Source: an uncultured Muribaculaceae bacterium (lineage in GTDB: Bacteria > Pseudomonadota > Alphaproteobacteria > Rs-D84). From it: a stretch of DNA of 64,000 nucleotides. Positions 3,030 through 48,675 of this stretch are shown piece by piece. A program made the translations under genes and the position numbers. Location of the stretch: NCBI GenBank assembly GCA_965231035.1, contig OZ246409.1, positions 257,222 to 321,221 on the forward strand, read 5' to 3'. Position 1 is the first letter of the stretch; the number at the start of each line of letters is the position of its first letter. A model generated the notes under the pieces. It ran no database searches. It was not told the origin of the DNA and saw only the letters and a program-made list of their open reading frames with translations.

Positions 3030-3114
3030 TTTTACATCCTACATTCCATCTGTTACATTTTATCATAAAACAGTTGAAAAAAAAAATGATTCTTGTATGA
3101 TTGCTTTCACATTT

Positions 3115-3199
3115 GGGACTATGGCGAAATTGGTAGACGCGCTACCTTGAGGTGGTAGTGGAGCAATCCTTAGGAGTTCAAATCTCCTTAGTCCCACCA
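3115..3199 (+). tRNA. tRNA-Leu, anticodon GAG, with a long variable arm and encoded CCA
   Basis: The acceptor stem GGGACTA pairs with TAGTCCC. The D arm is GCG..CGC and the anticodon stem CTACC/GGTAG has loop TTGAGGT, giving anticodon GAG. A long variable arm, the T arm AGGAGTTCAAATCTCCT, discriminator A and CCA follow. Confidence 0.85.
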
Positions 3200-3210
3200 A
3201 TATTTTTTCT

Positions 3211-3253
3211 TCTTGCCCACATTTTCATAATTTTGCTAACATTATTCTCAGGA
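3211..3253 (+). promoter_or_regulatory. Conserved 5' block shared with the paralog at 26070-26112. Putative promoter TTGCCC-N18-TAACAT lying just before the ATG
   Basis: cttgcccacattttcataattttgctaacattattctcaggaATG versus cttgccctgattttcatatttttgctaatattttacagagaATG; about 80 percent identical over 45 nt. Confidence 0.35.
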
Positions 3254-6200
3254 ATGAAGAAAATTACACTGCTTTTTGCTGTTTGCTTTGCGTTGCTTGG
3301 GATGCAGAAGGTTTTTGCTGATGACAGTACAGACGCTGCACGTGCTGCAACACGAGGAACAGCGACTGTGGTTGTTTCTTCACACCAAAAATCCGAAGAT
3401 TATAATAGTTCTACAGAAACAACTTCTTTGCCCTCGTCTGCTTCAAGGTCTGTTGTTGGTGGCGTTCAAAAAAGCGACTCTTCCCGTGATAGAGCTGTAA
3501 CAAATCGTGATAATTCTATTTCTGATAAATCCAGAACAAGTCAAACAAATCCTGTCACCGTCCCAAGAAGTGCAAGTGTTCAACAGCGAACAGCCAAAAT
3601 TTCTGAAAGATCCGCTGTCAGCCGTTCTGGAATAAATCAAACAAGTAATGTTACAGTTCGCAGTTCACTGGCTGCTCGCAGTGCGTTGAAAACACAATCC
3701 CGTGGAAATATTTCTGCACGTGCAGCGACAATGGATAATGCTCCAAAACAACCTTTACCAGATACAAAATCAACAAAAACAGATAATTCAAAATCATCTT
3801 CTGTTGGTTATAAAAAATGTCGCGAAGTTTATTACGGTTGTATGGATGAATTTTGTGCAAACAAAGACACCCAACTTAAAAGATGCGCTTGTTCATCCAG
3901 AATTCACGACTTTGACTCTGTTAAAAAGAATATGTCCAATGTCGAAGATAAAATTTTAGATTTCAATCAGCGATTAGTCAGTGTGAATCTTGATAAAGAA
4001 GATGCGGCTGCAATATCCAAAGAAACCGAAGGTGAAAAAGCTTATCAACAAACTGATAAATCAGATTCAAAAAGTATTTTGGACGAAATTTCAAAAAAAT
4101 TAAAATCCAGCACAACAGATACAGATTATAACAAAAACCTTTCTGCAATATCGCTTTCGTTGGACACAGATTCGGCATTCGACAGCATAGATTCATCTTT
4201 GGGCGCATCCACAACATCCAAAGAAGGAACAGATCTTTACGATGCCGCGATTCCAGTTTGTCGCGAAATGGCGGCCGAGGTTTGTGATTCAGATGGTGCA
4301 GCAATCGCAGAAAGTGGTTACCAGATGGCAATCGAACAAGATTGTAATACTGTTGCCAAGGCTTATGAAACCCTGCAAGACCAAGCACTGACCAAGGTTC
4401 GTGAAGGAAGCGCATTACTGGATATGTCCAGATTGGATGTTCATCAAAAAGAAAATGCTGATGACATTCTTACCTGCAAAAAGAAAATGCTGACAATGAT
4501 TACAGACAGTTCTGTATGCGGTAAAAATTTAATCGAGTGTCTGGATATTTCTGGAAGATATATTGATCCTTCTACTGGCGAGGCGTTCTTGACTGAAAAT
4601 TTAATTAATATGGAAAAACTTATCACCAGACCATCAGGCAACCAGAAATGGGTCGAAGTTTCAGGAAATTCACAATTCATAACTTACTTGAATTCTAAAA
4701 AGAAATATTTGGAATCATCTATGGAAAGCTGTAAGGACATTGCTGACACTGTTTGGGATGATTTCGTCGAAGATGCGCTGGCACAAATAAAATTGGCCCA
4801 AGAAAAAAAGTTAGAAGACATGCGTCAAAGCTGTACTTCGCTTACTACACAGTGTTTAGCCGATACATCAAAATCAATTTCTGATTTTGACGCGCGCGCG
4901 CTTTCTACTTTTGGTGTAACCGCAGACAAAACAGTTAATGAAATGTGTGCTGGAATAAAAACCGCCTGCACTGCTTTACTGGAATCAACTGGTGGCGATT
5001 CGGATTGGGTCGGCGGTATGAGTGAAATTCAAACAGATAAAACATACGACACACTTATTCAGACATGCCGCGAAGTTGGCAAGGCTTGCATTATCCAAAC
5101 CTGCAAATCTGTTTCAGGAAACTTTGGATTGTGCGAAAGCGTTGATAAATCAGTTAACAGAAAATCCATTATTAATCGTGCTGCTTGTTGGTCTGACGTA
5201 ATTAAATGCGTGGCTAATGCTGGCACCAGTTCTATTGACTCGATAATGAAAAAGTTTTCCAAGACCCCCAGTTCCAGTGGCGGAAACTTTTACACAGAAA
5301 ATTATGGTGTGCAACCAACAGTAAGTAATTCTACAAGTGGCGCTGGATGTGATCCTACTTCATCAACAACCCCTCAAAATTGTATTTATGATATTTGCAC
5401 CGAGTGTGGTCAGTCTGGTCAGCCAGATTGTGCGACTTGCAGATTGGCTGAAAAAATATGGGGCAACTGCGAGTTTATACCAACAAAAACATTAGATATT
5501 GTTCCACAAAACAAAATCAAGGCGACAATTTCCAGCACCGAAACATTGCTGTCTTGGTTTGATACGAACACTGGAACAACCGATTCTGCAGAAAGCTGTC
5601 GTGATACATCATGCGGTGCCGGATTCAGGGCATTTACAACAGATGGGGTAACAACATGTTCAAAGGCTTCTGACTTTTCGTCTGACAATTTACTTTGCCC
5701 AACAAAGCAATTCTTGGTATCCCAACCTGCTTGGAAGAACTGTTGTTCTACAGAAGAATATGATGATTTTGGAAATTGTTGTCAAGATACACCAATTACA
5801 GTTTCAGGGATATCAATCTGCAGAGAAACTTCCGATATCAATGTTTTCCCTGTTGCCTCGTTTACACTCAGCAGTGACAGTAGTGTTTACAAGGCCGGGA
5901 CAAATATCATGGTTTGTGTTGGTGGGACAATAGATGTTACAACCCCCGAAACTGCTTGGCCATCAGGAAGGAATGTTAAATGTAATGGTGGACATTTTGT
6001 TATTATCAATACCACTTATGGAACATATGTCAGCCCTTATTTCAACCTTGACGATATTGGTAATCCAACAACGACGACGAATCAACATCCAACCTACCCA
6101 AGCAATTATTATTCTTTGGATTATGATGCAGCTACAAACACAAGTATAAATTGCATATATAACTTCGAAAGTAATACTTGGAATTCCTCTACAGGAAGTG

Positions 6201-6262
6201 GTGTATGTGATAAAATAACCGGGTACCCGACTAACAACAATAATCTATTTATTAAGTATTGA
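3254..6262 (+). CDS. Large secreted cysteine-rich protein, family member 1 (CMDxFC / CGxDFxNC family)
   Basis: Track ORF 3152..6262 begins with GTG inside the tRNA, so the real start is MKKITLLFAVCFALLGMQKVFA at 3254, a signal peptide. An S/T/R-rich region is followed by CREVYYGCMDEFCANKDTQLKRCACSSR, and VCGKNLIECLDISGRYIDPSTGEAF matches paralog 26113. The C-terminal third is Cys-rich. Confidence 0.7.
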   Translation: MKKITLLFAVCFALLGMQKVFADDSTDAARAATRGTATVVVSSHQKSEDYNSSTETTSLPSSASRSVVGGVQKSDSSRDRAVTNRDNSISDKSRTSQTNPVTVPRSASVQQRTAKISERSAVSRSGINQTSNVTVRSSLAARSALKTQSRGNISARAATMDNAPKQPLPDTKSTKTDNSKSSSVGYKKCREVYYGCMDEFCANKDTQLKRCACSSRIHDFDSVKKNMSNVEDKILDFNQRLVSVNLDKEDAAAISKETEGEKAYQQTDKSDSKSILDEISKKLKSSTTDTDYNKNLSAISLSLDTDSAFDSIDSSLGASTTSKEGTDLYDAAIPVCREMAAEVCDSDGAAIAESGYQMAIEQDCNTVAKAYETLQDQALTKVREGSALLDMSRLDVHQKENADDILTCKKKMLTMITDSSVCGKNLIECLDISGRYIDPSTGEAFLTENLINMEKLITRPSGNQKWVEVSGNSQFITYLNSKKKYLESSMESCKDIADTVWDDFVEDALAQIKLAQEKKLEDMRQSCTSLTTQCLADTSKSISDFDARALSTFGVTADKTVNEMCAGIKTACTALLESTGGDSDWVGGMSEIQTDKTYDTLIQTCREVGKACIIQTCKSVSGNFGLCESVDKSVNRKSIINRAACWSDVIKCVANAGTSSIDSIMKKFSKTPSSSGGNFYTENYGVQPTVSNSTSGAGCDPTSSTTPQNCIYDICTECGQSGQPDCATCRLAEKIWGNCEFIPTKTLDIVPQNKIKATISSTETLLSWFDTNTGTTDSAESCRDTSCGAGFRAFTTDGVTTCSKASDFSSDNLLCPTKQFLVSQPAWKNCCSTEEYDDFGNCCQDTPITVSGISICRETSDINVFPVASFTLSSDSSVYKAGTNIMVCVGGTIDVTTPETAWPSGRNVKCNGGHFVIINTTYGTYVSPYFNLDDIGNPTTTTNQHPTYPSNYYSLDYDAATNTSINCIYNFESNTWNSSTGSGVCDKITGYPTNNNNLFIKY

Positions 6263-6900: not shown

Positions 6901-6987
6901 TTATTAAAAACACTAAAAAATTAAATCTGATGCTTGCATCAGATTTTTTTGTTGCTTAAAATAACAAAACTTCTTAAAATTCAAATT

Positions 6988-7956
6988 ATGATTAAAAAGA
7001 TTTTTTTGATTTTTGTTTTATTATTATCTGGTTCGAACGCCTTGGCAGCCGATGAGTGCTCTATATCAAATGCCACAAGTGGTTGTCTTACTGGCAAATA
7101 TTGTCTATATGATTCAACAGGAAACAGTTGTATGCCATGCCCTACTGCATATCCAAATTCATTAGTAAGTAATAATAATGAACAAACTGATTGTTATGCT
7201 TGTGCGACCAGAACCATTGCAAATGGAACTTGGGCGCCCGTCAGTCCTATATATTATCCAACAACACCAACAACATGTACCTATAACTCTGAGAATATTG
7301 CATGTACTTATATGAATTATCCTGTTCCGGATTCAACCGAGACATATGGATACAGATGTGCATTTATGATAATATTAGACGATTCCACCGGTTCCGGTGG
7401 CAGTGGAACAATATATGAAGTTTCTGGTGTAAAATATTTGAGCTCATCCGGAAATCAAATTGAAAATGTCGCAAAACCAATAAAAAGCAACAGCGTTTTT
7501 ACTGGGTATTATTCAAGTGGGAGTTCAATTGCCCAGATACCTGACAGTGGCATTTTACCAGGCAATACATATTTTGCTACCTCGACAACGCTTTTTGCAC
7601 ATTTTTCAACTTGTTCTGGGACTGGCGAACAAGGAACAATTACAAGTTCTGTCAGTGATAACACCTGTTATTATTTTATAACATGTAATGCAGGATACGA
7701 AAATACAACGAATTATAACCTTGCCACCAAAACAACGAACAGCTCTTTGTCTTGCACGCCTTGTTCTGCGGGATACTATTGCCCCGGGGGTGAACATCAA
7801 GCATGTCCTAAGGGTACAACCAGCAGTGGGGGTACAACCGCTACATCAACTGCCGCCTGCCACATGCAGGGTGGGGAAAATGGAACAAGATTTTGTGATT
7901 CTAATGGATGTTTCTATTTGCCAGATACCGCAACAATAACATCTAACTTACTATAA
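6988..7956 (+). CDS. Secreted cysteine-rich protein with ephrin-receptor-like/furin-like C-x-P-C-x-x-G-Y-Y repeats
   Basis: The internal start MIKKIFLIFVLLLSGSNALAA is a signal peptide. Motifs are CTPCSAGYYCPGGEHQACPKGT, CNAGYENTTNYNLA and SCMPCPTAYPNS. It resembles the protein at 456-725. Confidence 0.55.
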   Translation: MIKKIFLIFVLLLSGSNALAADECSISNATSGCLTGKYCLYDSTGNSCMPCPTAYPNSLVSNNNEQTDCYACATRTIANGTWAPVSPIYYPTTPTTCTYNSENIACTYMNYPVPDSTETYGYRCAFMIILDDSTGSGGSGTIYEVSGVKYLSSSGNQIENVAKPIKSNSVFTGYYSSGSSIAQIPDSGILPGNTYFATSTTLFAHFSTCSGTGEQGTITSSVSDNTCYYFITCNAGYENTTNYNLATKTTNSSLSCTPCSAGYYCPGGEHQACPKGTTSSGGTTATSTAACHMQGGENGTRFCDSNGCFYLPDTATITSNLL

Positions 7957-13364: not shown

Positions 13365-14189
13365 TTATTTGTTCAAAGCATCATTGATTTGTTCAAATGG
13401 GATTGCACCTGGGAAAGCACGATCGCCAATGATCAAGTATGGTGTTCCATTGATTTGGAAACGTTGTGCCAATTCGCGAACTTGACCCAATTCACGTGCA
13501 ACAACTGGACCATTCATGTCAGCTTCCAGCTTTTTAACATCCAAACCAACATCTTTTGCCATTTTCATAACGTTTGCATGAACTTTTTCACCAATTTTTG
13601 ATTGATCTTTCAAATCAGCTTGTGAATAGAATTCTTTGCTCATCATCATTGCATCAAGTGCGGCAGCTTTGTCATCACCCTGCATTTTTGCAGCAATAGA
13701 TGCGCGTGCAGCTGCATCAGACAATGGTCCATGGATCGAGAAGTTCTTTAAAACGATGCGAACATCTTTGCGAGAATCCAATACACGTTTCAGCTCTGCA
13801 TGAACACGGCGGCAATATGGGCATGAATAATCGCTGAACAAGAAGATTGTCTTGTCTGCGTTAACATTTCCCAAAACTGGAGCATCAGCCATCATTTTGT
13901 CCATATTATCACGAACATAGCTGCGAACCATTTTGGAACTTTCCATATTTTTCTGTTCCTGCATACCTGTTGCCATTTCTTGCAAGATAGCTGGGTTTAC
14001 AGATGTCAGATAGTATGGAGTCCACAGACGGCATACAGAACCAGCAATTAATATAATCGCCAGAATTTTTGTTGAGTTTTTAACAAGATCCATTCTGGAA
14101 TCCTGAGCTTTGCTATTTTGTTTGATCAGTTTGCCACCGAACAAATAAAGAGCTATACCCAAAACCAGAACCAGTATTGTCCAAGTCAT
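13365..14189 (-). CDS. DsbA-family thiol:disulfide oxidoreductase with an N-terminal membrane anchor
   Basis: CPYC active-site motif in SDYSCPYCRRVHAELKRV; thioredoxin-fold context; N-terminal TM helix. Confidence 0.7.
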   Translation of the reverse strand: MTWTILVLVLGIALYLFGGKLIKQNSKAQDSRMDLVKNSTKILAIILIAGSVCRLWTPYYLTSVNPAILQEMATGMQEQKNMESSKMVRSYVRDNMDKMMADAPVLGNVNADKTIFLFSDYSCPYCRRVHAELKRVLDSRKDVRIVLKNFSIHGPLSDAAARASIAAKMQGDDKAAALDAMMMSKEFYSQADLKDQSKIGEKVHANVMKMAKDVGLDVKKLEADMNGPVVARELGQVRELAQRFQINGTPYLIIGDRAFPGAIPFEQINDALNK

Positions 14190-16568: not shown

Positions 16569-17360
16569 ATGAGTAACCAGTTTCACAGATATCTTAACCG
16601 TATGGCATTGTTTGCAGCCTTGGTCACAGTTGGTGCTATTTTGTTTTATGATCAATTTTTGAAAATAGCCGTCACAAACGTTTGGCTGAACGGTATAATT
16701 ATTGGTACAACTATTTTTGGAATTGGGCTTTGTTTTACTGATATTTTCAAATTGTTGCCAGAATACAGATGGATGAAAAAATACTTTGGTGAAAACAAAA
16801 ATGCGGATTTACCACCAAGATTGCTACGCCCGGTTGCCATGATTTTGCAACGCAGCGAACAGACCAAGGGTCCAATTTCTACCAATACCATCAGCAGCTT
16901 TTTGGATATAATTATCGGCCGTTTCGAAGATCAACGTGAATCCGTCAGATATATAACCAATACTTTGATATTTTTGGGATTGTTGGGAACATTCTGGGGA
17001 TTAATTCATACAGTTGGCGGGTTTGCAGCATTGGTTGGGAATTTGAATTTTGGTGATGAAAATATTATGAATACTTTGCAATCTGGAATTGCCAAACCGC
17101 TTGCTGGAATGGGAACAGCATTTACATGTTCTTTGTTCGGATTGGCAGGCAGCTTGGTTGTTGGATTTTTGGGATTACAAGTACAATTGGCCCAAAATTC
17201 AATATTTCGTGATTTGGAAGAAAACTTGTCTTCGCGTGCCAGAATGTTTGAATTGGATGAGGTAAAGGCTTTTGATGCTCTTCCCCAGATTAACTTGGCA
17301 ACACGCGAATTATCACTAGCAGTTCAAAAACTGGAAAAATCAGTTTCAAAACTGACATAA
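16569..17360 (+). CDS. MotA/TolQ/ExbB-family proton-channel protein
   Basis: TM helices and the family signature TNTLIFLGLLGTFWGLIHTV. The start is taken at MSNQFHRYL, downstream of the track start. Confidence 0.6.
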   Translation: MSNQFHRYLNRMALFAALVTVGAILFYDQFLKIAVTNVWLNGIIIGTTIFGIGLCFTDIFKLLPEYRWMKKYFGENKNADLPPRLLRPVAMILQRSEQTKGPISTNTISSFLDIIIGRFEDQRESVRYITNTLIFLGLLGTFWGLIHTVGGFAALVGNLNFGDENIMNTLQSGIAKPLAGMGTAFTCSLFGLAGSLVVGFLGLQVQLAQNSIFRDLEENLSSRARMFELDEVKAFDALPQINLATRELSLAVQKLEKSVSKLT

Positions 17361-17386: not shown

Positions 17387-18604
17387 ATGCTGCATTTTCG
17401 TTTTCGTGAAAAAACTAATACTTGGCCCGGGTTCGTGGATTTATTTTCCAACCTGGTTATTATTCTTATTTTCTTGCTGATTGTTTTTGTATTCTTGTGG
17501 ACAACCACCAGTGTTTTTAACAAAAGTAGTGGATTGAAAACTGTTTCTGAATTAAGAAAAACAAACGAAGAACAAAGTCAGTCTTTGGCACAAATGTCAG
17601 CCGATGAACAAGAAGCCAAACGTCTGTTGGTTATGGCACGCAGTGAACTGGAAACTTTACAACAAAGCAAAACTGAATTAGAAGATAAGACAAACGATCT
17701 TCAGTCCAAGGCTTCTGATTTGCAAGAAAAAGCTGCTGACCTTGAAAGTGAAAAAGCAGATTTGCAGGATAAAATTAATCAACTGAACTCTGAAATACAA
17801 AAAAGAGATACCGGCACACAAGAACTGGTTACGGCTTATGAAAGCAAGGTTTCAGATATGCAAGATTCTGAAAACAAATTGCAAGATATGATTAATCAAT
17901 TAAATACTCAACTGAACCAGGCAACTGTGGATAAACAAAAAACAGCCGAGCTGGAACAGCAACGTCGTGCACTGCAATCCGATTTAGAAGCTCAACGTAT
18001 GGCATTATCTGATCAATTGTCAAAACTGCAGGCATCGTTGGACGCAGCCGAAGCAAAGTCACAAACCCAAGAAGTTCAATATACTGAATTGTCGAATCGT
18101 TTAAACAAAGCATTGGCTGACAAGGTTGCAGAACTAAGCAAGGTTGGACAATACCAATCAGATTTTTATAAGGCTATCAAGTTGGCACTGGGCGACAGAA
18201 CAACAATTAAACAAGAAGGTGACCGCTTTATAATTTCCAGTGATATTTTATTTTCCAGCGGCGAATATAATCTGTCACCAGAAGGTAAAAATCAATTGCG
18301 TCTGATTGCAAACGTAATCAAAGATATGGAAAATAAAATTCCAACAGATGTAAATTGGATTGTTCGTGTTGATGGTCACACAGATAAAACACCTGTAAAT
18401 CCTGGAAATCATGCCTTTAAGAATAACACCCAACTTTCATTATTACGCGCAATTGCAGTTTCTGGTGAATTGGAAAAAGCAGGCGTTTCAAAACGCAGAT
18501 TGGTTCCCAGTGGATTTGGCGAAATGTATCCAGTTGAATTGGGCACAGATGCAACCAGCCTGCAAAAGAATCGCAGAATCGAACTGCGTTTAACCAACAG
18601 ATAA
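17387..18604 (+). CDS. MotB/OmpA-like protein: N-terminal TM plug, about 200 aa of coiled coil, C-terminal OmpA peptidoglycan-binding domain
   Basis: The MotB-type TM is WPGFVDLFSNLVIILIFLL. A heptad-rich Q/E/L segment follows. The OmpA-like domain is FSSGEYNLSPEGK...VRVDGHTDKTPV...NRRIELRL. Confidence 0.6.
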   Translation: MLHFRFREKTNTWPGFVDLFSNLVIILIFLLIVFVFLWTTTSVFNKSSGLKTVSELRKTNEEQSQSLAQMSADEQEAKRLLVMARSELETLQQSKTELEDKTNDLQSKASDLQEKAADLESEKADLQDKINQLNSEIQKRDTGTQELVTAYESKVSDMQDSENKLQDMINQLNTQLNQATVDKQKTAELEQQRRALQSDLEAQRMALSDQLSKLQASLDAAEAKSQTQEVQYTELSNRLNKALADKVAELSKVGQYQSDFYKAIKLALGDRTTIKQEGDRFIISSDILFSSGEYNLSPEGKNQLRLIANVIKDMENKIPTDVNWIVRVDGHTDKTPVNPGNHAFKNNTQLSLLRAIAVSGELEKAGVSKRRLVPSGFGEMYPVELGTDATSLQKNRRIELRLTNR

Positions 18605-20962: not shown

Positions 20963-23464
20963 TTACATAACGATATCTTCACATTTTGCTTCGGATGTTT
21001 CAGTCTTACAGCTGGTGTTTCTATTGTTATGGAACCAGCTTTTGCTGCCTGTTGTTTTGCAACTTTCTGTGATTGTTGTTGTGCAAATATGACAATTTCT
21101 GGTTTCACGACTGAATATTGCACTGACCTGTTTTGTCATTCCACCGCCACTTAATTTTGCACCACCCAAATATCCACCATTGCTGAATGTCACACCACCA
21201 GCATGCATTACACCAGCCCCGCCTTTCATCAAATCTTCGGTTGTTAAACCAGATCCGACTTCGTAACTGATTGCATATGGTGGAGTCAAAGGAGTGCTGG
21301 CATTAACATCACCCAAACCACCTGCCCCACCGTTTTCTGCAATCTTTTGACACATGTATTGTGCCAAATCTGCAGAAGCATTTTTGGTTGCAGATGATAT
21401 TTCTTTATTCAATTTTGTATTATAATTATCTTGAGCTTTACGCAATGCAGCAACAGCAATTTGCATTTTAACCTGGTTCAGCAATTTTGGAAAACGTGCT
21501 GTGGTGACAGAACCGTCCTTACCATTTATCTGTGACAAATCACGTCCACTGACACAATATTGAATCTTAGGATCTTGTTCTATCATTTCAATCGTGCGAT
21601 TAATAGTGCCAGAAATATTATTCAGTTCTTCTTCAACAGAAGACATTATTCCAGCAGCGTTTGGAATACTTGTATTATTTGATTTAACTTTTACCAAATA
21701 ATCTTGGATACCAATTTGTCCAGGTTCTAACTTTGTTCCATCATCCAAAGTTTTACCACTGGAATCACCCATTTGTATACTGCCAAATGAAATCATTCCT
21801 GTTACACGATATACATCACCATCTTTTTGAGAACGAATTGAACCCGTTCCAATTGTGTCATCGGCTGCGAATTTATTACAATCTGTGGTGCTGCCACAAA
21901 CCTCGGTCATTTTTTCATCAACCAGATTCTCGCAATTTTCCAATTCAGCATTATCAATATTCAAATACAATCCCATCAACATTGAATCCAAATCATCCAT
22001 TGAAAATGCTGGATTATTTGCTTTGCAAACAACCAATTTATCCAATGGGCAAATATCTTTTATGTAATTGTAATCCATACCGATACAATTGCTGAAATCT
22101 TTGCCGCATCTTTCATCGGATGTAAAGCAATCTTTGACTTCTTGGGTACAAGCATCTACACGCATAGCAGCCAACTTGTCAGTTACATATCCCCATATCA
22201 TTGGTTCCATTCTTTCACAAGTATCAATTTGAACCTTGCAGAAACTGCGTGCCATATCTGGTCTGGACAAGCAAGAATCCATTGTTGCTGTCCCTTTACC
22301 AACTATATCGTCTTTACATGCTTTTTGAATACAGCTGGAAATATCAGTTAAACAAGATTGACGCATTTTTGATTCTGCATTTTGCTCGGCAAGTTTTATT
22401 GTTGGTGCGGCTTCACGTAAAAAATCGGGCCAAACATTGTCACGCACAACAACACATTGATCCAAAACTTTTTCACAAATATTGCGTTTTGCTTCCAAAA
22501 TTTCCATCGTAGAATCAGTTATGTCAAATTTAGATATAACATCTACTTTGGTACCAGCAGTACTGACGGCCTTGTTATTCTGCATATTTTCCGAAGCAAT
22601 CGTAGAAACGCAATTTGCCCAATCTTTGCCACATGCGTCATCAGATTGCATACATTTTTTAAATTCAACCATACATGTTCCACGATCATACTTGTTTGCG
22701 GAATCAAAACTGCTTTTTAACGCCGCACGAACATCAGATTGTGCACTGGTCAAAATTTTGTCTGCATCAGCCTTTTTTGATGCAACATCATTTGCAAATG
22801 CATTACAGTCAGAAACAATTTGTCTTGAATACATTTGTTGCAAGAACACAACATCTTTTGTACAAGAATCCGGCATCTTGGAAAGACAAAGATCATTCGC
22901 ACCGGTATAAAGAGAGTTTCCAGTTTTATTGGCCAAATTATCAACTTCTTCTTCGAAAACATCTTGATCATCAGTTGAAGAATTAGATTCAAAAATAGCC
23001 ATCAAATCTTTTTTCTTCTTTTCCTTGGTCTGTTCTGTTGATAATTCATCTACTGATATAACATTACCTTTTTCATCATATTCACGGGCACCATTAAAGA
23101 TAATATCAGCCTGTGCCCCAGCCTTGATTTTTTCAACTTGAACTGTTTTCAAATTATCTGCATTTTCCAATTGCTTTTTTATATCAGCCAATTGTTTTTC
23201 ATATTTTGCATTTTCATCACTGCACGAACAAGTTCCACCATTAGTATTATCAACATTACAAAACTGATCCATACATCCGTAATAAGTATCGTAACATTCT
23301 TGTGAATATAAACCAGTCGCCGCAACCTTAGCACGAACACTTGTTCCGCTTTGTATGACAGATTGCCCTTTGCTGGAACGTGTTGCCACAGCAGATTCAG
23401 CTGTAAAATGCACCAAGCAAAACACAGATGTCAACAATCCAAAGCTTATAATTTTACGCATCAT
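20963..23464 (-). CDS. Large secreted cysteine-rich protein, family member 2; cotranscribed downstream of member 3
   Basis: Signal peptide; CYDTYYGCMDQFCNVDNTNGGTCSCSDE; CGKDWANC and CGKDFSNCIGMDYNYIKDICPLDKLVVC modules; Gly-rich C-terminus ending CEDIVM. It is closely similar to 53572-56349. Confidence 0.7.
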   Translation of the reverse strand: MMRKIISFGLLTSVFCLVHFTAESAVATRSSKGQSVIQSGTSVRAKVAATGLYSQECYDTYYGCMDQFCNVDNTNGGTCSCSDENAKYEKQLADIKKQLENADNLKTVQVEKIKAGAQADIIFNGAREYDEKGNVISVDELSTEQTKEKKKKDLMAIFESNSSTDDQDVFEEEVDNLANKTGNSLYTGANDLCLSKMPDSCTKDVVFLQQMYSRQIVSDCNAFANDVASKKADADKILTSAQSDVRAALKSSFDSANKYDRGTCMVEFKKCMQSDDACGKDWANCVSTIASENMQNNKAVSTAGTKVDVISKFDITDSTMEILEAKRNICEKVLDQCVVVRDNVWPDFLREAAPTIKLAEQNAESKMRQSCLTDISSCIQKACKDDIVGKGTATMDSCLSRPDMARSFCKVQIDTCERMEPMIWGYVTDKLAAMRVDACTQEVKDCFTSDERCGKDFSNCIGMDYNYIKDICPLDKLVVCKANNPAFSMDDLDSMLMGLYLNIDNAELENCENLVDEKMTEVCGSTTDCNKFAADDTIGTGSIRSQKDGDVYRVTGMISFGSIQMGDSSGKTLDDGTKLEPGQIGIQDYLVKVKSNNTSIPNAAGIMSSVEEELNNISGTINRTIEMIEQDPKIQYCVSGRDLSQINGKDGSVTTARFPKLLNQVKMQIAVAALRKAQDNYNTKLNKEISSATKNASADLAQYMCQKIAENGGAGGLGDVNASTPLTPPYAISYEVGSGLTTEDLMKGGAGVMHAGGVTFSNGGYLGGAKLSGGGMTKQVSAIFSRETRNCHICTTTITESCKTTGSKSWFHNNRNTSCKTETSEAKCEDIVM

Positions 23465-23487
23465 AATCTCTCTCCACCAAAGTGTTA

Positions 23488-25629
23488 TTACATATTAACG
23501 TCTTCACAAGAATCAACTTCTTGGCAAAATTCTTGAGTACCGCCAGATGCACGACCGCCAAAGAATCCACCAATCGCACCGACTGCACCACCAATTGCTG
23601 TTCCCCACCCAGGCATAACCATTGTACCAGCCGCAGCACCAGCTGCCAATCCACCCCCAGCAGCCTTTAATCCAGATGTATTTTTACTTTCGCCACCTTT
23701 TTCACAAACTTGTTGTGTGCGACATACATGACAATTTCTTAAAGACGGTTCAAAAGATACACTTTTTATATAACTGTAATTTTTCTTTTTTTCGTCTGGC
23801 GTTTCTACCTTATAAGTCGAGGTACAATTTTTTTCTGCTTCTTCTAGGCTTTGAGCACGAGATAATTCTGCAATTTTTGATTCCAATTGTTTCACAGCTC
23901 TGTTTTCTGCACCAATTTCAGCAATTAACTTTGCGGTACTGAACACAGTATCACCCATTGATTTACGACCAGTTGGCTTTTTACCGTCTTTGCAAGCAGT
24001 AACATTTTTATCATTTTCAAAATCAGTAAAGAAATTTTTAACTGCTGCATCCGCATTATCTATAACTTGCTGACGCAAGGCAACCATACCTTCTTCGGTA
24101 TCTGGAACAGCATTCAATGCTGTTATTCTTGCATCATTTGGCAAACAGGACATATCTGTTCCACAAACCTTACCAAGTTTTTCTGCAAAATAATTTGTAC
24201 AACTTTGCAACATTTGATAATCCATCTGCAACATAGCCGCCTGGAGAATTATATTAAATTGTGTTTCTTTCTTACATGATGGGAACATAGACTGTGGACA
24301 CAGCGCAGAAATTTCCGAAGATTTTTTACCTAAACATTCAGGAGCATCATAATTTTTACCACATCTATCCTGTAAACATTTATCTATATCGTTTTCACAA
24401 AATTGAGTTTGTAAAAATCCAAGCTTATCACTGACAGAATTTTTTATACCCGGAATTATATCATTACATTCATCAATTATTGGACATACGCCCGCAGCAA
24501 CATTAATATCTGTCAAACAGGCAGAATCAGTGCCTGTTGAACAACCATCTTCCAGACAAGCCTGAATTTTTGCAAAACAAGTTGCACGGCGATTTTTATC
24601 CGCATATTTTGCAGCATCCTCTAAAACAGTCTTTGATTCAGCAGTCCAGTCTTGTATAACATAATCTTTGACCGCTGTGCATTGGTCCAAAACATTTTCA
24701 CAAGCATTAGCACGACGAGCCAATAATTCTTCGTCCAGACAATTTTCAAAATCAGACCCGCATCCGCCCTTGTCTGATATACAAGATTTATAAGCCAGCA
24801 AACATTCGCCACGATTATATTTGTTTGTTGTATCCAACATTTCCAATCTTGCCTTGCGGACAGCAGCCTCGGCAGTTGTTTTATTCGCACTGGCATCACG
24901 TTTTTGATCTGTCAGATAATTATTAAAATTTTTACAATCTTGAACAATTACACGCGAATAAAGCGTTTCTTCCATCCCAGCAGAATCACCGCAAGCCGCT
25001 AATTTTGAAGCACAATTATCAGTTGCAATTGCATATAAATTGTTACCAATATCATAATCTGAATTCAAAGCATCAGTGTCATCACTTGTTGTGCCAGAAC
25101 TAATCCAATCCGCAAGACTTAAACCAGAAGCACGTGATGAACTTTTAGCCTTGTCACTTTCACCAAATACTAATTTTGCCTTGGCACCAAGTTTTTCGCG
25201 TTCAACACCTTCGGTATACATTTTTTCCGCGTCATTTTGTATTTTTTGAATTTCTTGTATTATCGGTTTTGCCTGATTTATATTGTCAGAACAAGCACAA
25301 CGGCTGCCTTCGGATTCATCTAATAAACAAAATTCATCCATACATTGACGATAATTATCTCGACAACTGTTTGCAGAAGAAGATGTTGTTGTCACACTTG
25401 TTTTTGTGTCTGATGATTTGCTGACAGTTGTTGTTACAGGTTCTGTAACAGTCGTTTGTGTATCTGAATCTGTAGTATTTTCAACAGATGTCGAAGCCCT
25501 GGTCATAACCTGAGATCGGGCCGCCGCCTGGGAAATACGATTAACCCCAACCCTTGCATCACTTCTATCTGCAGCAAAAACAACACTTGGCAGAAAACAA
25601 ACTGCGGTTAAAAATATTTTTAATTTCAT
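23488..25629 (-). CDS. Large secreted cysteine-rich protein, family member 3
   Basis: Start taken at MKLKIFLTAVCFLPSVVFA (signal peptide); S/T-rich region; CRDNYRQCMDEFCLLDESEGSRCACSDN; CGSDFENC; Gly/Ala-rich hydrophobic C-terminus ending CEDVNM. Confidence 0.7.
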   Translation of the reverse strand: MKLKIFLTAVCFLPSVVFAADRSDARVGVNRISQAAARSQVMTRASTSVENTTDSDTQTTVTEPVTTTVSKSSDTKTSVTTTSSSANSCRDNYRQCMDEFCLLDESEGSRCACSDNINQAKPIIQEIQKIQNDAEKMYTEGVEREKLGAKAKLVFGESDKAKSSSRASGLSLADWISSGTTSDDTDALNSDYDIGNNLYAIATDNCASKLAACGDSAGMEETLYSRVIVQDCKNFNNYLTDQKRDASANKTTAEAAVRKARLEMLDTTNKYNRGECLLAYKSCISDKGGCGSDFENCLDEELLARRANACENVLDQCTAVKDYVIQDWTAESKTVLEDAAKYADKNRRATCFAKIQACLEDGCSTGTDSACLTDINVAAGVCPIIDECNDIIPGIKNSVSDKLGFLQTQFCENDIDKCLQDRCGKNYDAPECLGKKSSEISALCPQSMFPSCKKETQFNIILQAAMLQMDYQMLQSCTNYFAEKLGKVCGTDMSCLPNDARITALNAVPDTEEGMVALRQQVIDNADAAVKNFFTDFENDKNVTACKDGKKPTGRKSMGDTVFSTAKLIAEIGAENRAVKQLESKIAELSRAQSLEEAEKNCTSTYKVETPDEKKKNYSYIKSVSFEPSLRNCHVCRTQQVCEKGGESKNTSGLKAAGGGLAAGAAAGTMVMPGWGTAIGGAVGAIGGFFGGRASGGTQEFCQEVDSCEDVNM

Positions 25630-25774
25630 CAGACACCACCCTACATAGTCGTTGTATGTAATTTTATCAAATGCTGGCTTCCCACGCAAGCAGATAAACG
25701 TATAAAAATACCTTGCTTTTTCAATTCATAGCTAATATCATCAAACTAGTATTTTGTTTACAAAAAGGTTATTT

Positions 25775-26023
25775 ATGGCAAAAGATGATGTAATTGTATT
25801 AAATGGTACAGTTGAAGATAAATTGCCGAACACGATGTTCCGCATAAAATTAGAAAATGGACACGATGTTCTGGCAACTGTTTGTGGAAAAATGCGTAAA
25901 GCACGCATTTGGGTTAACGTTGGTGAAAAGGTCCGTGTTGAAATGACCCCTTATGACTTAGACAAGGGTCGTATTACATTTGTAGAAAGAACTGCAAAAC
26001 CTGCCCCAACTGCACAACAATAA
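25775..26023 (+). CDS. infA: Translation initiation factor IF-1
   Basis: [42 protein letters not shown]. The start is in the track frame at the internal Met. Confidence 0.85.
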
Positions 26024-26025
26024 AT

Positions 26026-26053
26026 TTATCCCGCGAACCGCGGGATTTTTTTG
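26026..26053 (+). terminator. Intrinsic terminator
   Basis: ATCCCGCGaacCGCGGGATttttttt. Confidence 0.5.
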
Positions 26054-26112: not shown

Positions 26113-28851
26113 ATGAAAAAGATTTGGTCTTTTGCTTTATGTTGCATTATCAGCATCAGTTTTGCTGACGCTTCGCAACGCACAGAAACTTCTATAAATC
26201 GTGAACCAGTTTCAACTTCACAACGTACCGCAACTGTTCAAAAAGAATCTGCAAAAGTTAATTCCAGAACTGGTTCTGTACGTGAGGTTTCGGTCAGAAA
26301 CAGTTCTAATACATTGTCACGATCAGCTGTTACAACCCCCAGAAAAAACACTACAATTTCTGCAAGGTCGGCAACAACCACAACAAAAGCAAGAACAACT
26401 GTTACCAGAAACGTCCCGGTTACAAAAAACAATCTGATATCCCGAACAACCACAACAACATCAGATTCAAAAACCTTTGGCAGTGGATATAACGCTTGCA
26501 GGGACTCTTATTTCACCTGTATGGATCAATTTTGTGCAAAACAAGATGAAACATATCAACGCTGTGCTTGTTCATCCAGATTGGAAGAAATAAAAAGCAA
26601 AGAACGCGCACTTTCACAAACCAAGCAGCAATTACAAGATTTCAAGGATTTAAATATTGATTCAATATCCAAGACCAGGAACGAGGTCAAGGCTATGGTG
26701 AATGCCAGTGCTGGTGAATCCGCAACTGATAAATCAACTGATACTTCCAGCAGTTCGGAAAAATTATCAGGTATCAGTTCTGTATTAAGCAAGACAAAAT
26801 CCGAATCTTTATCCACCCAAGGTAAATTAGATATTGCCGGTAATATAAATGCTATTTGGTCAACCACAGATTTGACTGCTGGTGCAGATATAATGAATTT
26901 AACCGGGGAAAAACTTTACAATGCTGTTCACGCCCAATGCGTTTCTTTTGCATCTGATTCTTGTGATTCTAAATCAACATTAAATATGGTTGTTACTGCC
27001 TATGGAATGTATATTGAAAATGATTGCACAACACTTTCTAATTCTTTGGCAAAACAAACTACTAACGCATCCGGAAGTATACGTGAAACAGAACAAGCAA
27101 TGAACCAAGCCAGATTAGAAAATTATGATTCACATAATTCTACATCTATTAATGACTGTATATCAAACGTTCGCAAAGATATAACTGCTGACTCTGCTTG
27201 TGGTAAAGATTATATTCACTGTTTGGACATAACTGGAAAATATCTTAACAGCGATACAGGAGAGCCTATATACAGCTCGGACTTTTATCAGTTAGAATTA
27301 CAAACATCTTTATCAGGGGATATTTTAACAAACCAGACAAATAGGTTGCTTGTAAATGAGTTAAATAAAAAGAAAGAGTTCGTAACAAACGATTTATCCA
27401 AGTGTAGCGATTTGTCATCTGATGTGTGGGATGAATTTATGCGTCAAGCAATTACCGAAATATATCAAGGCCAGCAAGAAAGAATCCGAGAAGTTAAAAA
27501 CGAATGTATTGATGTTGTTAACGATTGCTATGACACACAAAGCAAATCTTTGAAAGATTTTAGTAATGTAAAAGAACAGCTTTTGTTGGGATCAAGATTA
27601 GAATTATCTGAAGAAATGTGCAAAGAAAAACTTAATGCATGCAGCAATCTTTACGGTGGTGGTGAACCAGGACTAGAAGAACTTGTTACAACCATGCATA
27701 ATATTACAGATCAGAAAATTGCTAAAGATTGCAAAACAACACTGGAAGATTATGCAAAAAGTATTTGTGCTGTACCATCCAGCGACATTGTCCATGGATA
27801 CCCTTTTGCATGTCGCACATACGCACCAGGCGAACAAAAGTATGCCTCTATTTCGTCGTGTAATCTTGTATTTTCGACCGGAACTTTGAATGTTATTGAT
27901 ACCGGGTATACTGCTGGTGTTGATAATGGAACTGGAACTGTTAATTTCATTTGCAGAGATAACACAATTTATACAAATTGCAGTTATGGATATTACATGG
28001 CTTATTTAACCAATGGTTTTTACATTTATGACGGAACTCCAAAACCTGGTAATAAATGTCTAAAATGTCCTACACTTGCATCTAATGGAACATCAGCGGT
28101 TAGTTACAATTGTAATGGTGGAACAGAAGCTCCTGCACAGATAACAAATGAAAATACAAGTAATGTTACATGTGGTGATGATTATGTAGGAAGTTTGTAT
28201 CAAAAAATTGTTAGATATGCATTACAGACCTGCACCAGACCTTCGGATTCTACAGAAGTTTTACCTTATGCAATTTTAGCCGATGTGAATGTTGTTATGG
28301 ATTCAATAAAATCAGCAATGGGCACGCAGTTGTCCGATGAATGTGAACGTCTTGGTGGTATTTGGGTTAATACTCCAGGAAATAATGTATCTTCTGATAA
28401 AATATTAACATCATTTTATACCGAGACCAGTTCTAATAAAAAATGGGGGTATTGTTCTGTTACACCAGCCATAGTATGCCCAAAATTTTCCACTTCGGAT
28501 TCCAGTTGTGTATCTACTGATTCATCGGGTGTATCTGGTGGTTGTGCAATAGCAAAATGCAGATGTGTTTCCGGAACATATTCAAATGGGTCTGGAGGAT
28601 GTACGCCGGGTACATACAGTTGCCAAGGAGCCTGTGGTACCCAAAGAACGACATTTACTGCAAGTTCACAAACACCTGTTACAACAGCATGGACGGGCGG
28701 TGATAATTATAAGATACGTAGAAAATATAGTGTATTATGTTCCAATTGGATAACTGTAAGTGGGGGTACTTGCACTTCTGCTAATTTCACAGCTTATTAC
28801 ACTTCGTGTTTAAACGATAATAATTTCACTACGCTAGTAACTTGCGATTAG
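26113..28851 (+). CDS. Large secreted cysteine-rich protein, family member 4
   Basis: Signal peptide; S/T/R-rich region; CRDSYFTCMDQFCAKQDETYQRCACSSR; ACGKDYIHCLDITGKYLNSDTGEPIY; Cys-rich C-terminal third. Confidence 0.7.
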   Translation: MKKIWSFALCCIISISFADASQRTETSINREPVSTSQRTATVQKESAKVNSRTGSVREVSVRNSSNTLSRSAVTTPRKNTTISARSATTTTKARTTVTRNVPVTKNNLISRTTTTTSDSKTFGSGYNACRDSYFTCMDQFCAKQDETYQRCACSSRLEEIKSKERALSQTKQQLQDFKDLNIDSISKTRNEVKAMVNASAGESATDKSTDTSSSSEKLSGISSVLSKTKSESLSTQGKLDIAGNINAIWSTTDLTAGADIMNLTGEKLYNAVHAQCVSFASDSCDSKSTLNMVVTAYGMYIENDCTTLSNSLAKQTTNASGSIRETEQAMNQARLENYDSHNSTSINDCISNVRKDITADSACGKDYIHCLDITGKYLNSDTGEPIYSSDFYQLELQTSLSGDILTNQTNRLLVNELNKKKEFVTNDLSKCSDLSSDVWDEFMRQAITEIYQGQQERIREVKNECIDVVNDCYDTQSKSLKDFSNVKEQLLLGSRLELSEEMCKEKLNACSNLYGGGEPGLEELVTTMHNITDQKIAKDCKTTLEDYAKSICAVPSSDIVHGYPFACRTYAPGEQKYASISSCNLVFSTGTLNVIDTGYTAGVDNGTGTVNFICRDNTIYTNCSYGYYMAYLTNGFYIYDGTPKPGNKCLKCPTLASNGTSAVSYNCNGGTEAPAQITNENTSNVTCGDDYVGSLYQKIVRYALQTCTRPSDSTEVLPYAILADVNVVMDSIKSAMGTQLSDECERLGGIWVNTPGNNVSSDKILTSFYTETSSNKKWGYCSVTPAIVCPKFSTSDSSCVSTDSSGVSGGCAIAKCRCVSGTYSNGSGGCTPGTYSCQGACGTQRTTFTASSQTPVTTAWTGGDNYKIRRKYSVLCSNWITVSGGTCTSANFTAYYTSCLNDNNFTTLVTCD

Positions 28852-28890: not shown

Positions 28891-29622
28891 ATGAAAAAAT
28901 TATTTTATGCACCTTTATTTTCGCTAATTTTTTCTGCACACGCGGGTGCTTTATCTGCCCCAAGTGCAACCCCTTGGTGGCTGCAACCAACTATTTGTAA
29001 ACCTAATACTACAAATTGTTATTCAAATATGGGCGCCGGGTATGATTCTGGTATGTGGGATGCAACAAGCAATTGCTGGGGATTGAAAAAAATTTGTGCC
29101 GAAGCTACAACTTCTACATCAGATGAAGATTATGTCGAAATGGGACGTGTTACAATTGCAAATGGTACAGGTATAAATTCTGACTTTGATACTACTGTTT
29201 TAAATGGTGATTGTTTTGGTGCAAGAAAAACAACTGCCAGCGGAACACTTGCTTCGGTTAGTGGAAGTTATGTTAATGTTTGGTGTAATGGGATTTTGGA
29301 CAACCCAGGGGATACCGTTTCAAATGGTGAAATTCAAATTGGAACCCAACCAACATGCAAAGATTTGGCGGCAAATGGTTGGGTTGCTGTTTTGAATCAA
29401 CGCTGTTATGGGAAATATTATGATCCTGAAAAATACTATATTGAGTGTGAAGGAACAAATCTGTTACCAAAAAGGATTATTGTTCTGAATGGATCACAAA
29501 AGTTTACTGGAACTGGTTCTGCACCAAGTGCAAATTATCCTGTTGATGCAAATGCGGCGGATACTTTATTTGATAAAATGTTTAATGTTTCAAATAATAA
29601 AAAATCAGACCATTTTAAGTAA
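28891..29622 (+). CDS. Hypothetical secreted protein that contains cysteines
   Basis: Signal peptide MKKLFYAPLFSLIFSAHAGA; paired cysteines throughout; no recognised domain. Confidence 0.45.
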   Translation: MKKLFYAPLFSLIFSAHAGALSAPSATPWWLQPTICKPNTTNCYSNMGAGYDSGMWDATSNCWGLKKICAEATTSTSDEDYVEMGRVTIANGTGINSDFDTTVLNGDCFGARKTTASGTLASVSGSYVNVWCNGILDNPGDTVSNGEIQIGTQPTCKDLAANGWVAVLNQRCYGKYYDPEKYYIECEGTNLLPKRIIVLNGSQKFTGTGSAPSANYPVDANAADTLFDKMFNVSNNKKSDHFK

Positions 29623-41373: not shown

Positions 41374-41408
41374 AAAATCTCGACAATGCCGAGATTTTTT
41401 ATTTTTTT
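41374..41408. terminator. Bidirectional intrinsic terminator
   Basis: aaaaaATCTCGacaatgcCGAGATtttttatttttt. Confidence 0.5.
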
Positions 41409-45144: not shown

Positions 45145-45209
45145 GAAAACTCTCTCTGCTAGAGAAAATTTTAACATAAAAATGTCAAATCTGTCCAGCG
45201 GAAAAAATG

Positions 45210-45630: not shown

Positions 45631-46497
45631 ATGAATAAAAGTTTTGCCTTTTTCATATTTGCATTCAGCTTTGTATTTGCTGGTTTTTCTGCCGCAAGTG
45701 CTTCTTCGTGCTCGATTATGGATTTGAACAGATGTTTGGATTCAGCTTGCGGAATTAATATCAGCTTAAACCCCGGGGCACGTTGTCAGCTTTGTGGAAC
45801 TGCTCAGGCTGGTGCCGCTGATACAAAAGGATTCAAAAGTTTATCTGTTGGTGCATCAAACCGAAACACATTATCTGCATCAGATTTACAATCTGCGCCT
45901 TCTGACCCGGGATCCAGATACGCATGGGCCAGTGGCGAATGTTTAAAAAAGATTTCTGGTTGTACCGCAGATGATGTATCAAATAACTATGACAAATTAA
46001 TTGAACAATCTTGTCGTGCTGCGGGTGTTAACGCAGAAATGAATTCTTTGGTATCTGCTGCAAACAAACAAAAAAATGCAAACGTTTGTAATTCAGAAAT
46101 TCTTTTGTGTATGAATTCTGAAAAACATTGTGGCGCAGATTTTTCAAATTGCAAAACAGATGAAGATTTTAATAAACATTTTTCCGTCTGTGCATCAGAT
46201 ACAATTGGATGTGACAATTTTGTAAGTGATATGCGTACAAATATGATTTCACAGCGTGATTCTGCGACATTGGCTTATGATAATTCTGTATCCAGTATTG
46301 TTAAATCTTATCAAACAAAACGCGAAAGCGGATTGAAATCTGCAACAGATACTTGCACAAACAACAAGGGACGCGAAAGTTGCATAAAAACCGTTTGCCA
46401 GAATAATATGAAAAACAAGTGTGATAGTGATTCTGAAAAATCAATAGCGACATTGTTATGTAAATTTTACGACACAGCTTGCGGAAGGTTAAAATAA
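45631..46497 (+). CDS. Secreted cysteine-rich protein; small relative of the CGxDFxNC family. First gene of a four-gene operon
   Basis: Signal peptide; CSIMDLNRCLDSACG...; CMNSEKHCGADFSNC. Confidence 0.55.
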   Translation: MNKSFAFFIFAFSFVFAGFSAASASSCSIMDLNRCLDSACGINISLNPGARCQLCGTAQAGAADTKGFKSLSVGASNRNTLSASDLQSAPSDPGSRYAWASGECLKKISGCTADDVSNNYDKLIEQSCRAAGVNAEMNSLVSAANKQKNANVCNSEILLCMNSEKHCGADFSNCKTDEDFNKHFSVCASDTIGCDNFVSDMRTNMISQRDSATLAYDNSVSSIVKSYQTKRESGLKSATDTCTNNKGRESCIKTVCQNNMKNKCDSDSEKSIATLLCKFYDTACGRLK

Positions 46498-46500
46498 CAA

Positions 46501-48063: not shown

Positions 48064-48066
48064 AAA

Positions 48067-48663: not shown

Positions 48664-48675
48664 AGCGGCAATAAT

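Follow-up and report, generated by a model that had tools for sequence, protein, structure and literature searches.

The window analysed here, a 64,000-nucleotide stretch of contig OZ246409.1 (assembly GCA_965231035.1) from an uncultured bacterium of the alphaproteobacterial order Rs-D84, encodes five large, cysteine-rich proteins of one family, two of which, members 3 and 2, lie in tandem on the minus strand. These two are, with near certainty, ancient and constrained paralogs. Beyond this, they can be read as anciently diverged, non-interchangeable subunits of an exported, disulfide-rich, elongated alpha-helical family that is specific to Rs-D84 and belongs to its core genome, a proposal to which we give about an even chance. 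Its parts differ in strength. Export and disulfide bonding of members 2 and 3 are very probable, as their sequence features suggest. That the family forms a structural assembly of the envelope or surface is plausible at somewhat less than even chances; hetero-assembly, membrane anchoring and a structural role at the envelope or surface are speculative.

On sequence comparison, the split between members 2 and 5 is older than the radiation of the sampled species. Member 5 (53572-56349, minus strand, 925 amino acids) is the closest paralog of member 2 (BLASTP E 1e-165, against 1e-55 for members 2 and 3), and a sequence-only reading of this DNA had taken the two for near-duplicates arising from a fairly recent duplication dispersed about 30 kb apart. 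Global alignment does not bear this out. It gives an identity of 38.6% in amino acids (793 aligned codons) and of 50.7% in nucleotides, a proportion of synonymous differences (pS) of 0.72, meaning saturated synonymous sites, and a longest exact common DNA word of 17 nucleotides. The 97-residue block quoted in favour of a long match (member 2 residues 446-542, at 21839-22129 on the minus strand, against member 5 residues 499-595) is real, homologous and the best-conserved region of the pair, but the match is not close, with 48 of 97 residues identical. The alignment and Ka/Ks analysis proposed for the two genes thus returns low identity, and its Ka/Ks is uninformative because dS is saturated; it was replaced by comparisons among orthologs.

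Orthologs in other species share 60-81% identity with member 2 (at least 80 species), 64-75% with member 3 and 43-67% with member 5; a match to member 3 at 98% comes from a strain of the same species. In an alignment of 124 sequences, identity is 64% or more among member-2 orthologs and no higher than 44% between these and any member-5 ortholog, and the nearest neighbour of every sequence falls within its own ortholog group, with zero mixing. The rate of divergence among orthologs of member 5 is about double that for member 2. Nor are the usual marks of a young duplicate present: nucleotide identity is not high, synonymous divergence is not unsaturated, and no copy is missing at the orthologous position, members 2, 3 and 4 being syntenic in 81 loci. 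Collectively, the separate ortholog groups, the saturated sites and the conserved positions indicate that the duplications took place before the sampled lineage radiated. The distance of 30 kb between members 2 and 5 is an old, fixed arrangement. Member 5 comes after rpoA-rplQ in the window (132 nucleotides downstream of rplQ) and in one relative (L087), and stands beside the same ribosomal-protein/SecY cluster in another (L086), these being the two relatives in which its synteny was checked. It has its own promoter-like site and its own terminator, and a bidirectional terminator hairpin separates it from rpoA-rplQ.

Purifying selection on members 2 and 3 is of the same order as on adjoining housekeeping genes. 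Against a strain of the same species (L005; dS 0.1-0.25), the ratio of nonsynonymous to synonymous substitution rates (dN/dS, or omega) is 0.047 for member 2 and 0.045 for member 3, beside 0.027 for a neighbouring DEAD helicase gene and 0.025 for a neighbouring MotB/OmpA-like gene. Over close species pairs (13 per gene, dS 0.03-0.8), the medians are 0.052 (maximum 0.14) and 0.046 (maximum 0.08). Ten and fourteen residues, respectively, differ from the sister strain, mostly conservatively. Each protein has 37 cysteines, and 36 of them are at least 97% conserved, across 85 species for member 2 and 81 for member 3; over the same species, 22% and 18% of the alignment columns are invariant. Poorly conserved parts are limited to the signal peptide/N-terminus and an acidic linker in member 2, and to the signal peptide and a Ser/Thr-rich N-terminal linker (low-conservation window at residues 36-92) in member 3, and no hypervariable segment was found outside signal peptides and linkers in either protein across these 81-85 species. 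Member 4 (26113-28851, plus strand, 912 amino acids, downstream of infA) alone in the family behaves like a variable, possibly exposed module. Its first ∼610 residues are conserved; its C-terminal third (residues 613-912) is strongly different from that of L005, with residues 613-790 differing heavily between the two strains and a whole-gene dN/dS of 0.21. The window copy also carries an extra 122-residue cysteine-rich tail that L005 does not have.

Members 3 and 2 are arranged head to tail. Member 3 (23488-25629, minus strand, 713 amino acids from its ATG) comes first, and member 2 (20963-23464, minus strand, 833 amino acids) follows as a complete open reading frame (ORF). The mechanical ORF of member 3 reaches a TTG at 25689; the ATG at 25629 is preferred because it fits the lengths of the orthologs (708-758 amino acids, mostly 708-733). 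The spacing of 23 bp noted in the sequence-only reading is exact: two complete ORFs on the same strand are separated by 23465-23487. Along this junction follow the TAA of member 3 (23488-23490), the Shine-Dalgarno element GGTGGAGAGAG (23468-23478) and the ATGATG of member 2, with a GGAG ribosome-binding site 7-10 nucleotides 5′ of the member 2 ATG, and no terminator-like hairpin was found in the 23-nucleotide spacer. The pair thus has the sequence attributes of a bicistronic operon, namely a common strand, a short spacer, no terminator and a ribosome-binding site for the distal gene. Co-transcription of members 3 and 2 is very probable, because the spacer of 23 nucleotides has a ribosome-binding site and lacks a terminator and because the tandem is conserved in 81 of 81 loci. 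Upstream, infA (IF-1; 25775-26023, plus strand) is divergent from member 3 across a 145-nucleotide intergenic region, an arrangement conserved in related loci, and is followed by a terminator hairpin (26028-26046).

The 81 loci are those, among 84 related loci with member 2, that have enough upstream DNA to score the tandem. In every one, member 3 stands directly upstream of member 2 on the same strand, with a median spacer of ∼25 nucleotides (at most 69 nucleotides in 79 of the 81) that usually bears a purine-rich GGAGAGAG-type element 5′ of the ATG. A wider layout, in which infA, member 4 and a gene for a 243-residue protein run in one direction and members 3 and 2 in the other, is kept in ∼65 of the 81, an undercount since contig ends interrupt additional loci. 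In at least 80 species of uncultured gut Alphaproteobacteria, members 2 and 3 have 1:1 orthologs whose place in the chromosome is fixed. At the level of the family, 985 representatives are found at E≤1e-3 when 1.84 billion representative proteins are searched by profile, and species-representative genomes hold at least 581 coding stretches, of which the best 80 are member-2 orthologs from metagenome-assembled genomes (MAGs) of gut Alphaproteobacteria/Enterousia. The carriers include Candidatus Enterousia, gut MAGs and termite-gut MAGs, of the order Rs-D84. The literature on Enterousia, Rs-D84, cysteine-rich surface proteins and CX6C yielded no account of the family.

A few related loci show peculiarities. 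In two termite-gut MAGs (L008, at 2825-3227, and L017), the spacer between members 3 and 2 holds an insert of ∼400 nucleotides with a small ORF, and co-orientation is retained; the small ORF resembles the four-helix-bundle ‘rRNA intervening-sequence’ proteins. Three clear member-2 orthologs with Rs-D84 gene order are found under the labels Muribaculaceae (L043 and L085) and Bacteroides fragilis (L064), and most likely belong to mis-binned contigs in public MAGs.

All five members begin with a basic and then hydrophobic signal-like N-terminus ending in an AxA-type site, as judged by inspection and hydropathy. In member 3, the putative signal peptide (25573-25629, minus strand; a hydrophobic N-terminal segment identified by inspection) reads MKLKIFLTAVCFLPSVVFA, with AD after the cut. 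Except in member 2, a region of 60-170 residues enriched in Ser, Thr and Arg comes after the signal segment. The linker of this type in member 3 (residues 20-85; 25375-25572, minus strand) is probably disordered, with a predicted local distance difference test score (pLDDT) below 50 at residues 13-84. The element SAR[AS][AG] recurs after signal peptides, with four copies in member 5 (residues 44-89) and three to four in member 1, and is also seen in member 4 and in the ORF at 46501-48063 (residue 35); these copies may have a common function in binding or sorting, or be no more than low-complexity sequence. Every paralog, like the orthologs that were inspected, has a cysteine within the hydrophobic core of its signal peptide (25597-25599 in member 3). 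Lipoprotein anchoring through this cysteine was considered and rejected by inspection, its spacing and flanks being unlike a lipobox and the AxA-type site lying downstream.

Cysteine makes up 4.2-5.2% of the residues of the five members. After the presumed cleavage, the count is even in four of the five (36, 36, 38 and 42), with 36 in both members 2 and 3. Successive cysteines are spaced by exactly seven positions (Cx6C) in 40 of 194 gaps, against 6.9±2.5 expected at random. In member 2, this ladder takes the form of a 24-residue motif, Cx6Cx6CGxDx3C, present in two copies on the minus strand (residues 264-287 at 22604-22675 and residues 439-462 at 22079-22150; hhalign probability 94.6% for one against the other), the only internal repeat detected. 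From the models, we infer a mostly helical architecture. The AlphaFold2 model of member 2, built on the 124-sequence alignment (mean pLDDT 76, predicted template modelling score (pTM) 0.48), has a predicted long-helix, cysteine-rich core (residues 55-710; 21335-23302, minus strand) and a C-terminal beta sheet at residues 733-832. The model of member 3, built on an 83-sequence alignment (pLDDT 70.5, pTM 0.42), has a predicted all-alpha core with heptad-spaced cysteines (residues 86-605; 23815-25374, minus strand), in which pLDDT is mostly 70-92 and dips to the 40s at residues 150-190 and to the 50s at 540-560.

The two proteins end in related modules. That of member 2 is a Gly-rich/beta-sheet region (residues 733-833; 20966-21268, minus strand) with RNCHIC at 21083-21100 and a terminal CEDIVM at 20966-20983 on the same strand. 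In member 3, a predicted three-stranded sheet (residues 618-627, 632-642 and 702-712) bears RNCHVC in a beta strand (residues 631-636; 23722-23739, minus strand) and the terminal CEDVNM strand (23491-23508, minus strand), and a Gly/Ala-rich hydrophobic hairpin is inserted in the sheet (residues 644-699; 23533-23700, minus strand). This hairpin is glycine-zipper-like, is modelled with low confidence as two helices, and is conserved in sequence among the orthologs. The sequence-only reading had described one C-terminal signature for both proteins, with a Gly-rich stretch between the two motifs. RNCH[IV]C and CED[IV]xM are indeed common to members 2 and 3, but the Gly-rich stretch lies between them in member 3 only; in member 2 it is upstream of RNCH[IV]C. 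Methionine is the last residue in 120 of 120 member-2, 119 of 120 member-3 and 106 of 120 member-5 orthologs. The ending [IV]-x-M-COOH is found in members 2, 3 and 5 (53575-53592 in member 5), with Met last in 345 of the 360 orthologs, and takes the form CED[IV]xM in members 2 and 3. To our knowledge, CED[IV]xM-COOH is not a described sorting signal.

Library searches place the family close to nothing described. Pfam and NCBIfam give nothing above noise for the five members at E≤1, and Pfam gives nothing for 51 divergent family representatives at E≤0.01. NCBIfam and Pfam likewise return no match in the members to PEP-CTERM, GlyGly-CTERM, the C-terminal domain of the type IX secretion system, LPXTG or an autotransporter barrel. 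Searches of the PDB by sequence, with profiles of 5, 124 and 51 sequences, bring up nothing meaningful, the only matches being in the signal-peptide region at E≥2, and Foldseek finds no fold match in the PDB for the models of members 2 and 3. PHROGs and PADLOC contain no family match except for the Gly-rich segment of member 3, where the hairpin matches glycine-rich stretches of phage tape-measure PHROGs (E 2.8e-5). With the matches in these two libraries confined to that segment, an origin of the family from phage or defence systems was rejected.

We propose the following sequence of events for the pair. One bicistronic mRNA would start in the divergent promoter region between infA and member 3, and both products would be exported by Sec, after which the DsbA from the neighbourhood would oxidize them in the periplasm. 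Neighbouring helices would then be stapled by the heptad-spaced Cx6C cysteines, and members 3 and 2, probably together and with other paralogs, would assemble into a stable structure of the envelope or cell surface. The C-terminal beta module (RNCH[IV]C ... CED[IV]xM-COOH) might serve assembly or anchoring, and the glycine-zipper-like hairpin inserted in that of member 3 might sit in the membrane.

Several observations weigh against this proposal. With no homolog of known function, the case for a structural role is built on conservation, composition and context; strong conservation fits an enzymatic, transport or binding role equally well. The pTM values of the models are low (0.42-0.48), and the disulfide pairing is predicted from cysteine spacing. 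A recognized signal for targeting to the outer membrane and a sorting domain are lacking (NCBIfam), as is a lipobox (by inspection), and the hairpin of member 3 is unmatched by the Pfam glycine-zipper and Rick_17kDa_Anti models at E≤1, where the best match, at E 0.42, is unrelated. A promoter-like hexamer pair within member 3 (23649-23621) could give member 2 its own transcript; sites of this type are no commoner than in shuffled sequence. Finally, the Enterousia spacers in seven loci (L002, L012, L013, L025, L026, L028 and L029) are 42-63 nucleotides long and contain a GC-rich hairpin without a T-run, which could be an attenuator or an mRNA-stabilizing element that adjusts the relative amounts of the two proteins.

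The explanation put forward in the sequence-only reading was that of diversifying surface antigens, with a recent duplication, members 2 and 5 as a young pair and immune or phage pressure as the driving force. The proteins do look exported and cysteine-rich, the faster divergence of member-5 orthologs would suit such a role, and so would member 4, with its strain-variable C-terminal third, its difference of 122 residues in length and its omega of 0.21. Substitutions do fall between invariant cysteines, as had been reported; this is expected of any disulfide-rich fold and is not specific to antigens. For members 2 and 3, the explanation is rejected because dN/dS is low, the cysteines are conserved and variation is confined to N-termini and linkers, with omega at ∼0.05 and no hypervariable segments beyond signal peptides and linkers. 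The distance between members 2 and 5 (38.6% identity with saturated dS), the clean separation of the ortholog groups and the conserved synteny of members 2, 3, 4 and 5 are also opposed to it, and no partial or silent family copies occur among ORFs of at least 80 residues (family hidden Markov model (HMM); 64 kb plus flanks examined). Antigenic diversification is therefore scarcely credible, and the finding should not be carried forward in its form of a young duplicate under such diversification. Nearly as improbable is a role as secreted effectors or toxins that enter the cells of a host or of competitors. Such a role would be in keeping with the signal peptides, the lack of known domains, the association of the lineage with hosts and the presence of an ankyrin-repeat protein at another place in the window, but purifying selection is very strong, synteny is fixed and orthology is 1:1 across at least 80 species. 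Moreover, no toxin/immunity architecture or mobile-element context is seen, and the phage and defence libraries are empty except for the Gly-rich segment match.

Two further explanations have more in their favour. The family could consist of surface adhesins or partner-contact proteins, whose helical cores act as stalks and whose basic N-terminal tails or variable C-termini bind a polymer of the host or partner, a role that we consider somewhat unlikely. It would agree with the proposed dependence of the lineage on other cells (PMC12306168), with the basic, disordered regions after the signal peptide in members 1, 3, 4 and 5, with the variable C-terminus of member 4, and by analogy with the chlamydial adhesin OmcB, which binds heparin/glycosaminoglycans (PMC2229832). 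It is at odds with member 2, which lacks most of the basic tail, and with the housekeeping-level constraint over the whole length of members 2 and 3, which is not usual for adhesins that face a ligand; Pfam and NCBIfam show neither adhesin domains nor secretion signals. Alternatively, the proteins might be periplasmic or membrane-associated machinery of a non-structural kind, for the uptake or transfer of lipids or metabolites, which might work with a MotA/MotB-like motor. We regard this as improbable, even if the lineage is reported to have no lipid, amino acid or nucleotide synthesis and no standard transporters, each paralog is conserved 1:1 as machine parts would be, and a MotA/ExbB-like and MotB/OmpA-like pair is conserved beside member 2. 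Neither PDB sequence searches nor Foldseek reveal homology or a fold match to transport or motor-coupled systems, and the motor pair is on the opposite strand, where its adjacency may be a coincidence in a compact genome.

The closest analogies of the exported, disulfide-rich helical family proposed here are functional, not evolutionary. Cross-linking of the chlamydial envelope by disulfides depends on DsbA/DsbB (PMC6752827). Like OmcB and OmcA, the members are cysteine-rich and probably exported proteins of a host-dependent Gram-negative organism with a reduced genome, a DsbA gene is near the locus, several members have basic N-terminal tails, and a homolog of the Protochlamydia-type porin Pom adjoins member 1. 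In contrast, there is no sequence relationship, the predicted fold is one of long helices instead of beta-rich, and five paralogs of 700-1000 residues are present; Rs-D84 is reported to keep peptidoglycan genes, and cross-linking here is a proposal from cysteine content and dsbA. No match to Pfam models of the OmcB/OmcA type (Chlam_OMP6/DUF11-type) was found for the five members at E≤1 or for the 51 divergent members at E≤0.01. In the Helicobacter Hcp/Sel1-like proteins, helix pairs are bridged by disulfides (PMC1941758). These also form secreted, paralogous alpha-helical families, and Cx6C cysteines in the predicted helices here point to stapling of the same kind, but the members here are much larger, with a C-terminal beta module and a single 24-residue internal repeat. 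No Sel1/TPR match was found in Pfam, and Foldseek gave no PDB match, Hcp entries being presumed among its targets.

Other resemblances are more local. Glycine-zipper hairpins, such as those of the Rickettsia 17-kDa antigen, SlyB-Pcp and tape-measure segments, share the GxxxG-type spacing seen at residues 644-699 of member 3; unlike in glycine-zipper lipoproteins, this hairpin is an insertion in the beta module of a 713-residue protein without a lipobox. CHCH, or twin Cx9C, domains carry fixed-period cysteines on two short helices joined by a loop. Member 2 recalls them with Cx6C-x6-Cx6C at residues 264-285 and 439-460, but the spacing is x6 instead of x9, compartment and organisms are other ones, homology is absent, and disulfide pairing here is predicted from spacing. 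Anaplasma Msp2/P44 and the variant-specific surface proteins (VSPs) of Giardia are multi-copy exported families too, and the Giardia VSPs are also cysteine-rich; members 2 and 3 differ from them in their omega of ∼0.05, their fixed loci and their lack of cassettes.

Rs-D84 genomes are <1 Mb, without most biosynthesis and standard transporters and with many hypothetical membrane proteins (PMC12306168). They are reported to lack lipid, amino acid and nucleotide synthesis and to keep peptidoglycan genes, and the organisms are proposed to be obligate symbionts or parasites that draw metabolites from other cells (PMC12306168). In such a genome, whose largest contig here is 849 kb, a large family without annotation, domain or fold match takes up ∼13.7 kb, is kept 1:1 in every sampled species and is under housekeeping-level constraint. 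Families of this type are good candidates for the structures, of the envelope or for contact, by which bacteria with reduced genomes live off other cells, and the conserved cysteine ladder and C-terminal motif offer handles for antibodies, fractionation and structural work. A bolder version, which we judge rather unlikely, makes the five paralogs subunits of an undescribed, disulfide-stapled helical apparatus of the envelope or surface, with a new fold, as a core and lineage-defining organelle of Rs-D84. If true, this apparatus could be a protein coat or a structure for cell contact and nutrient acquisition that underpins a partner-dependent life with genomes <1 Mb, and CED[IV]xM-COOH would be a new signal for assembly or sorting.

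Exactly five homologous ORFs occur in the window, as defined by all-versus-all BLASTP and by a family HMM run against every ORF of at least 80 residues. They fall into two subgroups, {2,5,3} and {1,4}, between which BLASTP E-values range from 1e-9 to 1e-23. Member 1 (3254-6262, plus strand) has 1002 amino acids from its MKKI start; its mechanical ORF starts at 3152 and overlaps tRNA-Leu. Five signal-peptide ORFs (6934-7956, 28891-29622, 45631-46497, 46501-48063 and 50252-52300) with 9-22 cysteines and no Pfam domain were rejected as family members, having no HMM match at E≤10, including the one at 45631-46497, which has a weak BLASTP match to the family. The ORF at 28891-29622 encodes the 243-residue protein that is found behind member 4 in the great majority of the related loci, and that at 50252-52300, conserved beside member 5, has a weak glycine-zipper match.

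Among the neighbouring genes, the one for a DsbA-like periplasmic thiol oxidase (13365-14189, minus strand; Pfam DSBA 3.5e-20) is ∼7 kb from the pair and stays nearby in the three relatives checked (L001, L002 and L004). Closer to member 2, a MotA/ExbB-like protein of 263 amino acids (16569-17360, plus strand) matches PADLOC ZorA1 at E 9e-14 in the channel domain only and Pfam MotA_ExbB at E 0.002, below the cutoff. It is followed by a MotB/OmpA-like protein of 405 amino acids (17387-18604, plus strand; ZorB3 E 1.7e-20, Pfam OmpA 6e-15) with a coiled-coil-like linker of ∼190 residues. The pair is called in all five gene-annotated loci, and an OmpA-like gene lies within 6 kb of member 2 in ∼30 of the 81 loci. 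A full Zorya system was rejected, there being no long ZorA tail and no ZorC/D seen. Rs-D84 is reported to be without flagella.

Elsewhere in the window, a 510-residue signal-peptide protein (1497-3029, minus strand) matches the Protochlamydia outer membrane protein family (Pfam Pom, E 2.9e-10). Its gene is divergent from member 1 across tRNA-Leu (3115-3199), and a chlamydia-type porin is unusual in an alphaproteobacterium. Four genes on the same strand form a cluster at 45631-50043 (plus strand; 288, 520, 198 and 455 amino acids), with signal-like N-termini and no Pfam match. In a 1256-residue ORF (41407-45177, minus strand), N-terminal ankyrin repeats (Pfam Ank_4 2.9e-6) are the sole recognizable domain, a type that is typical of effectors of host-associated bacteria.

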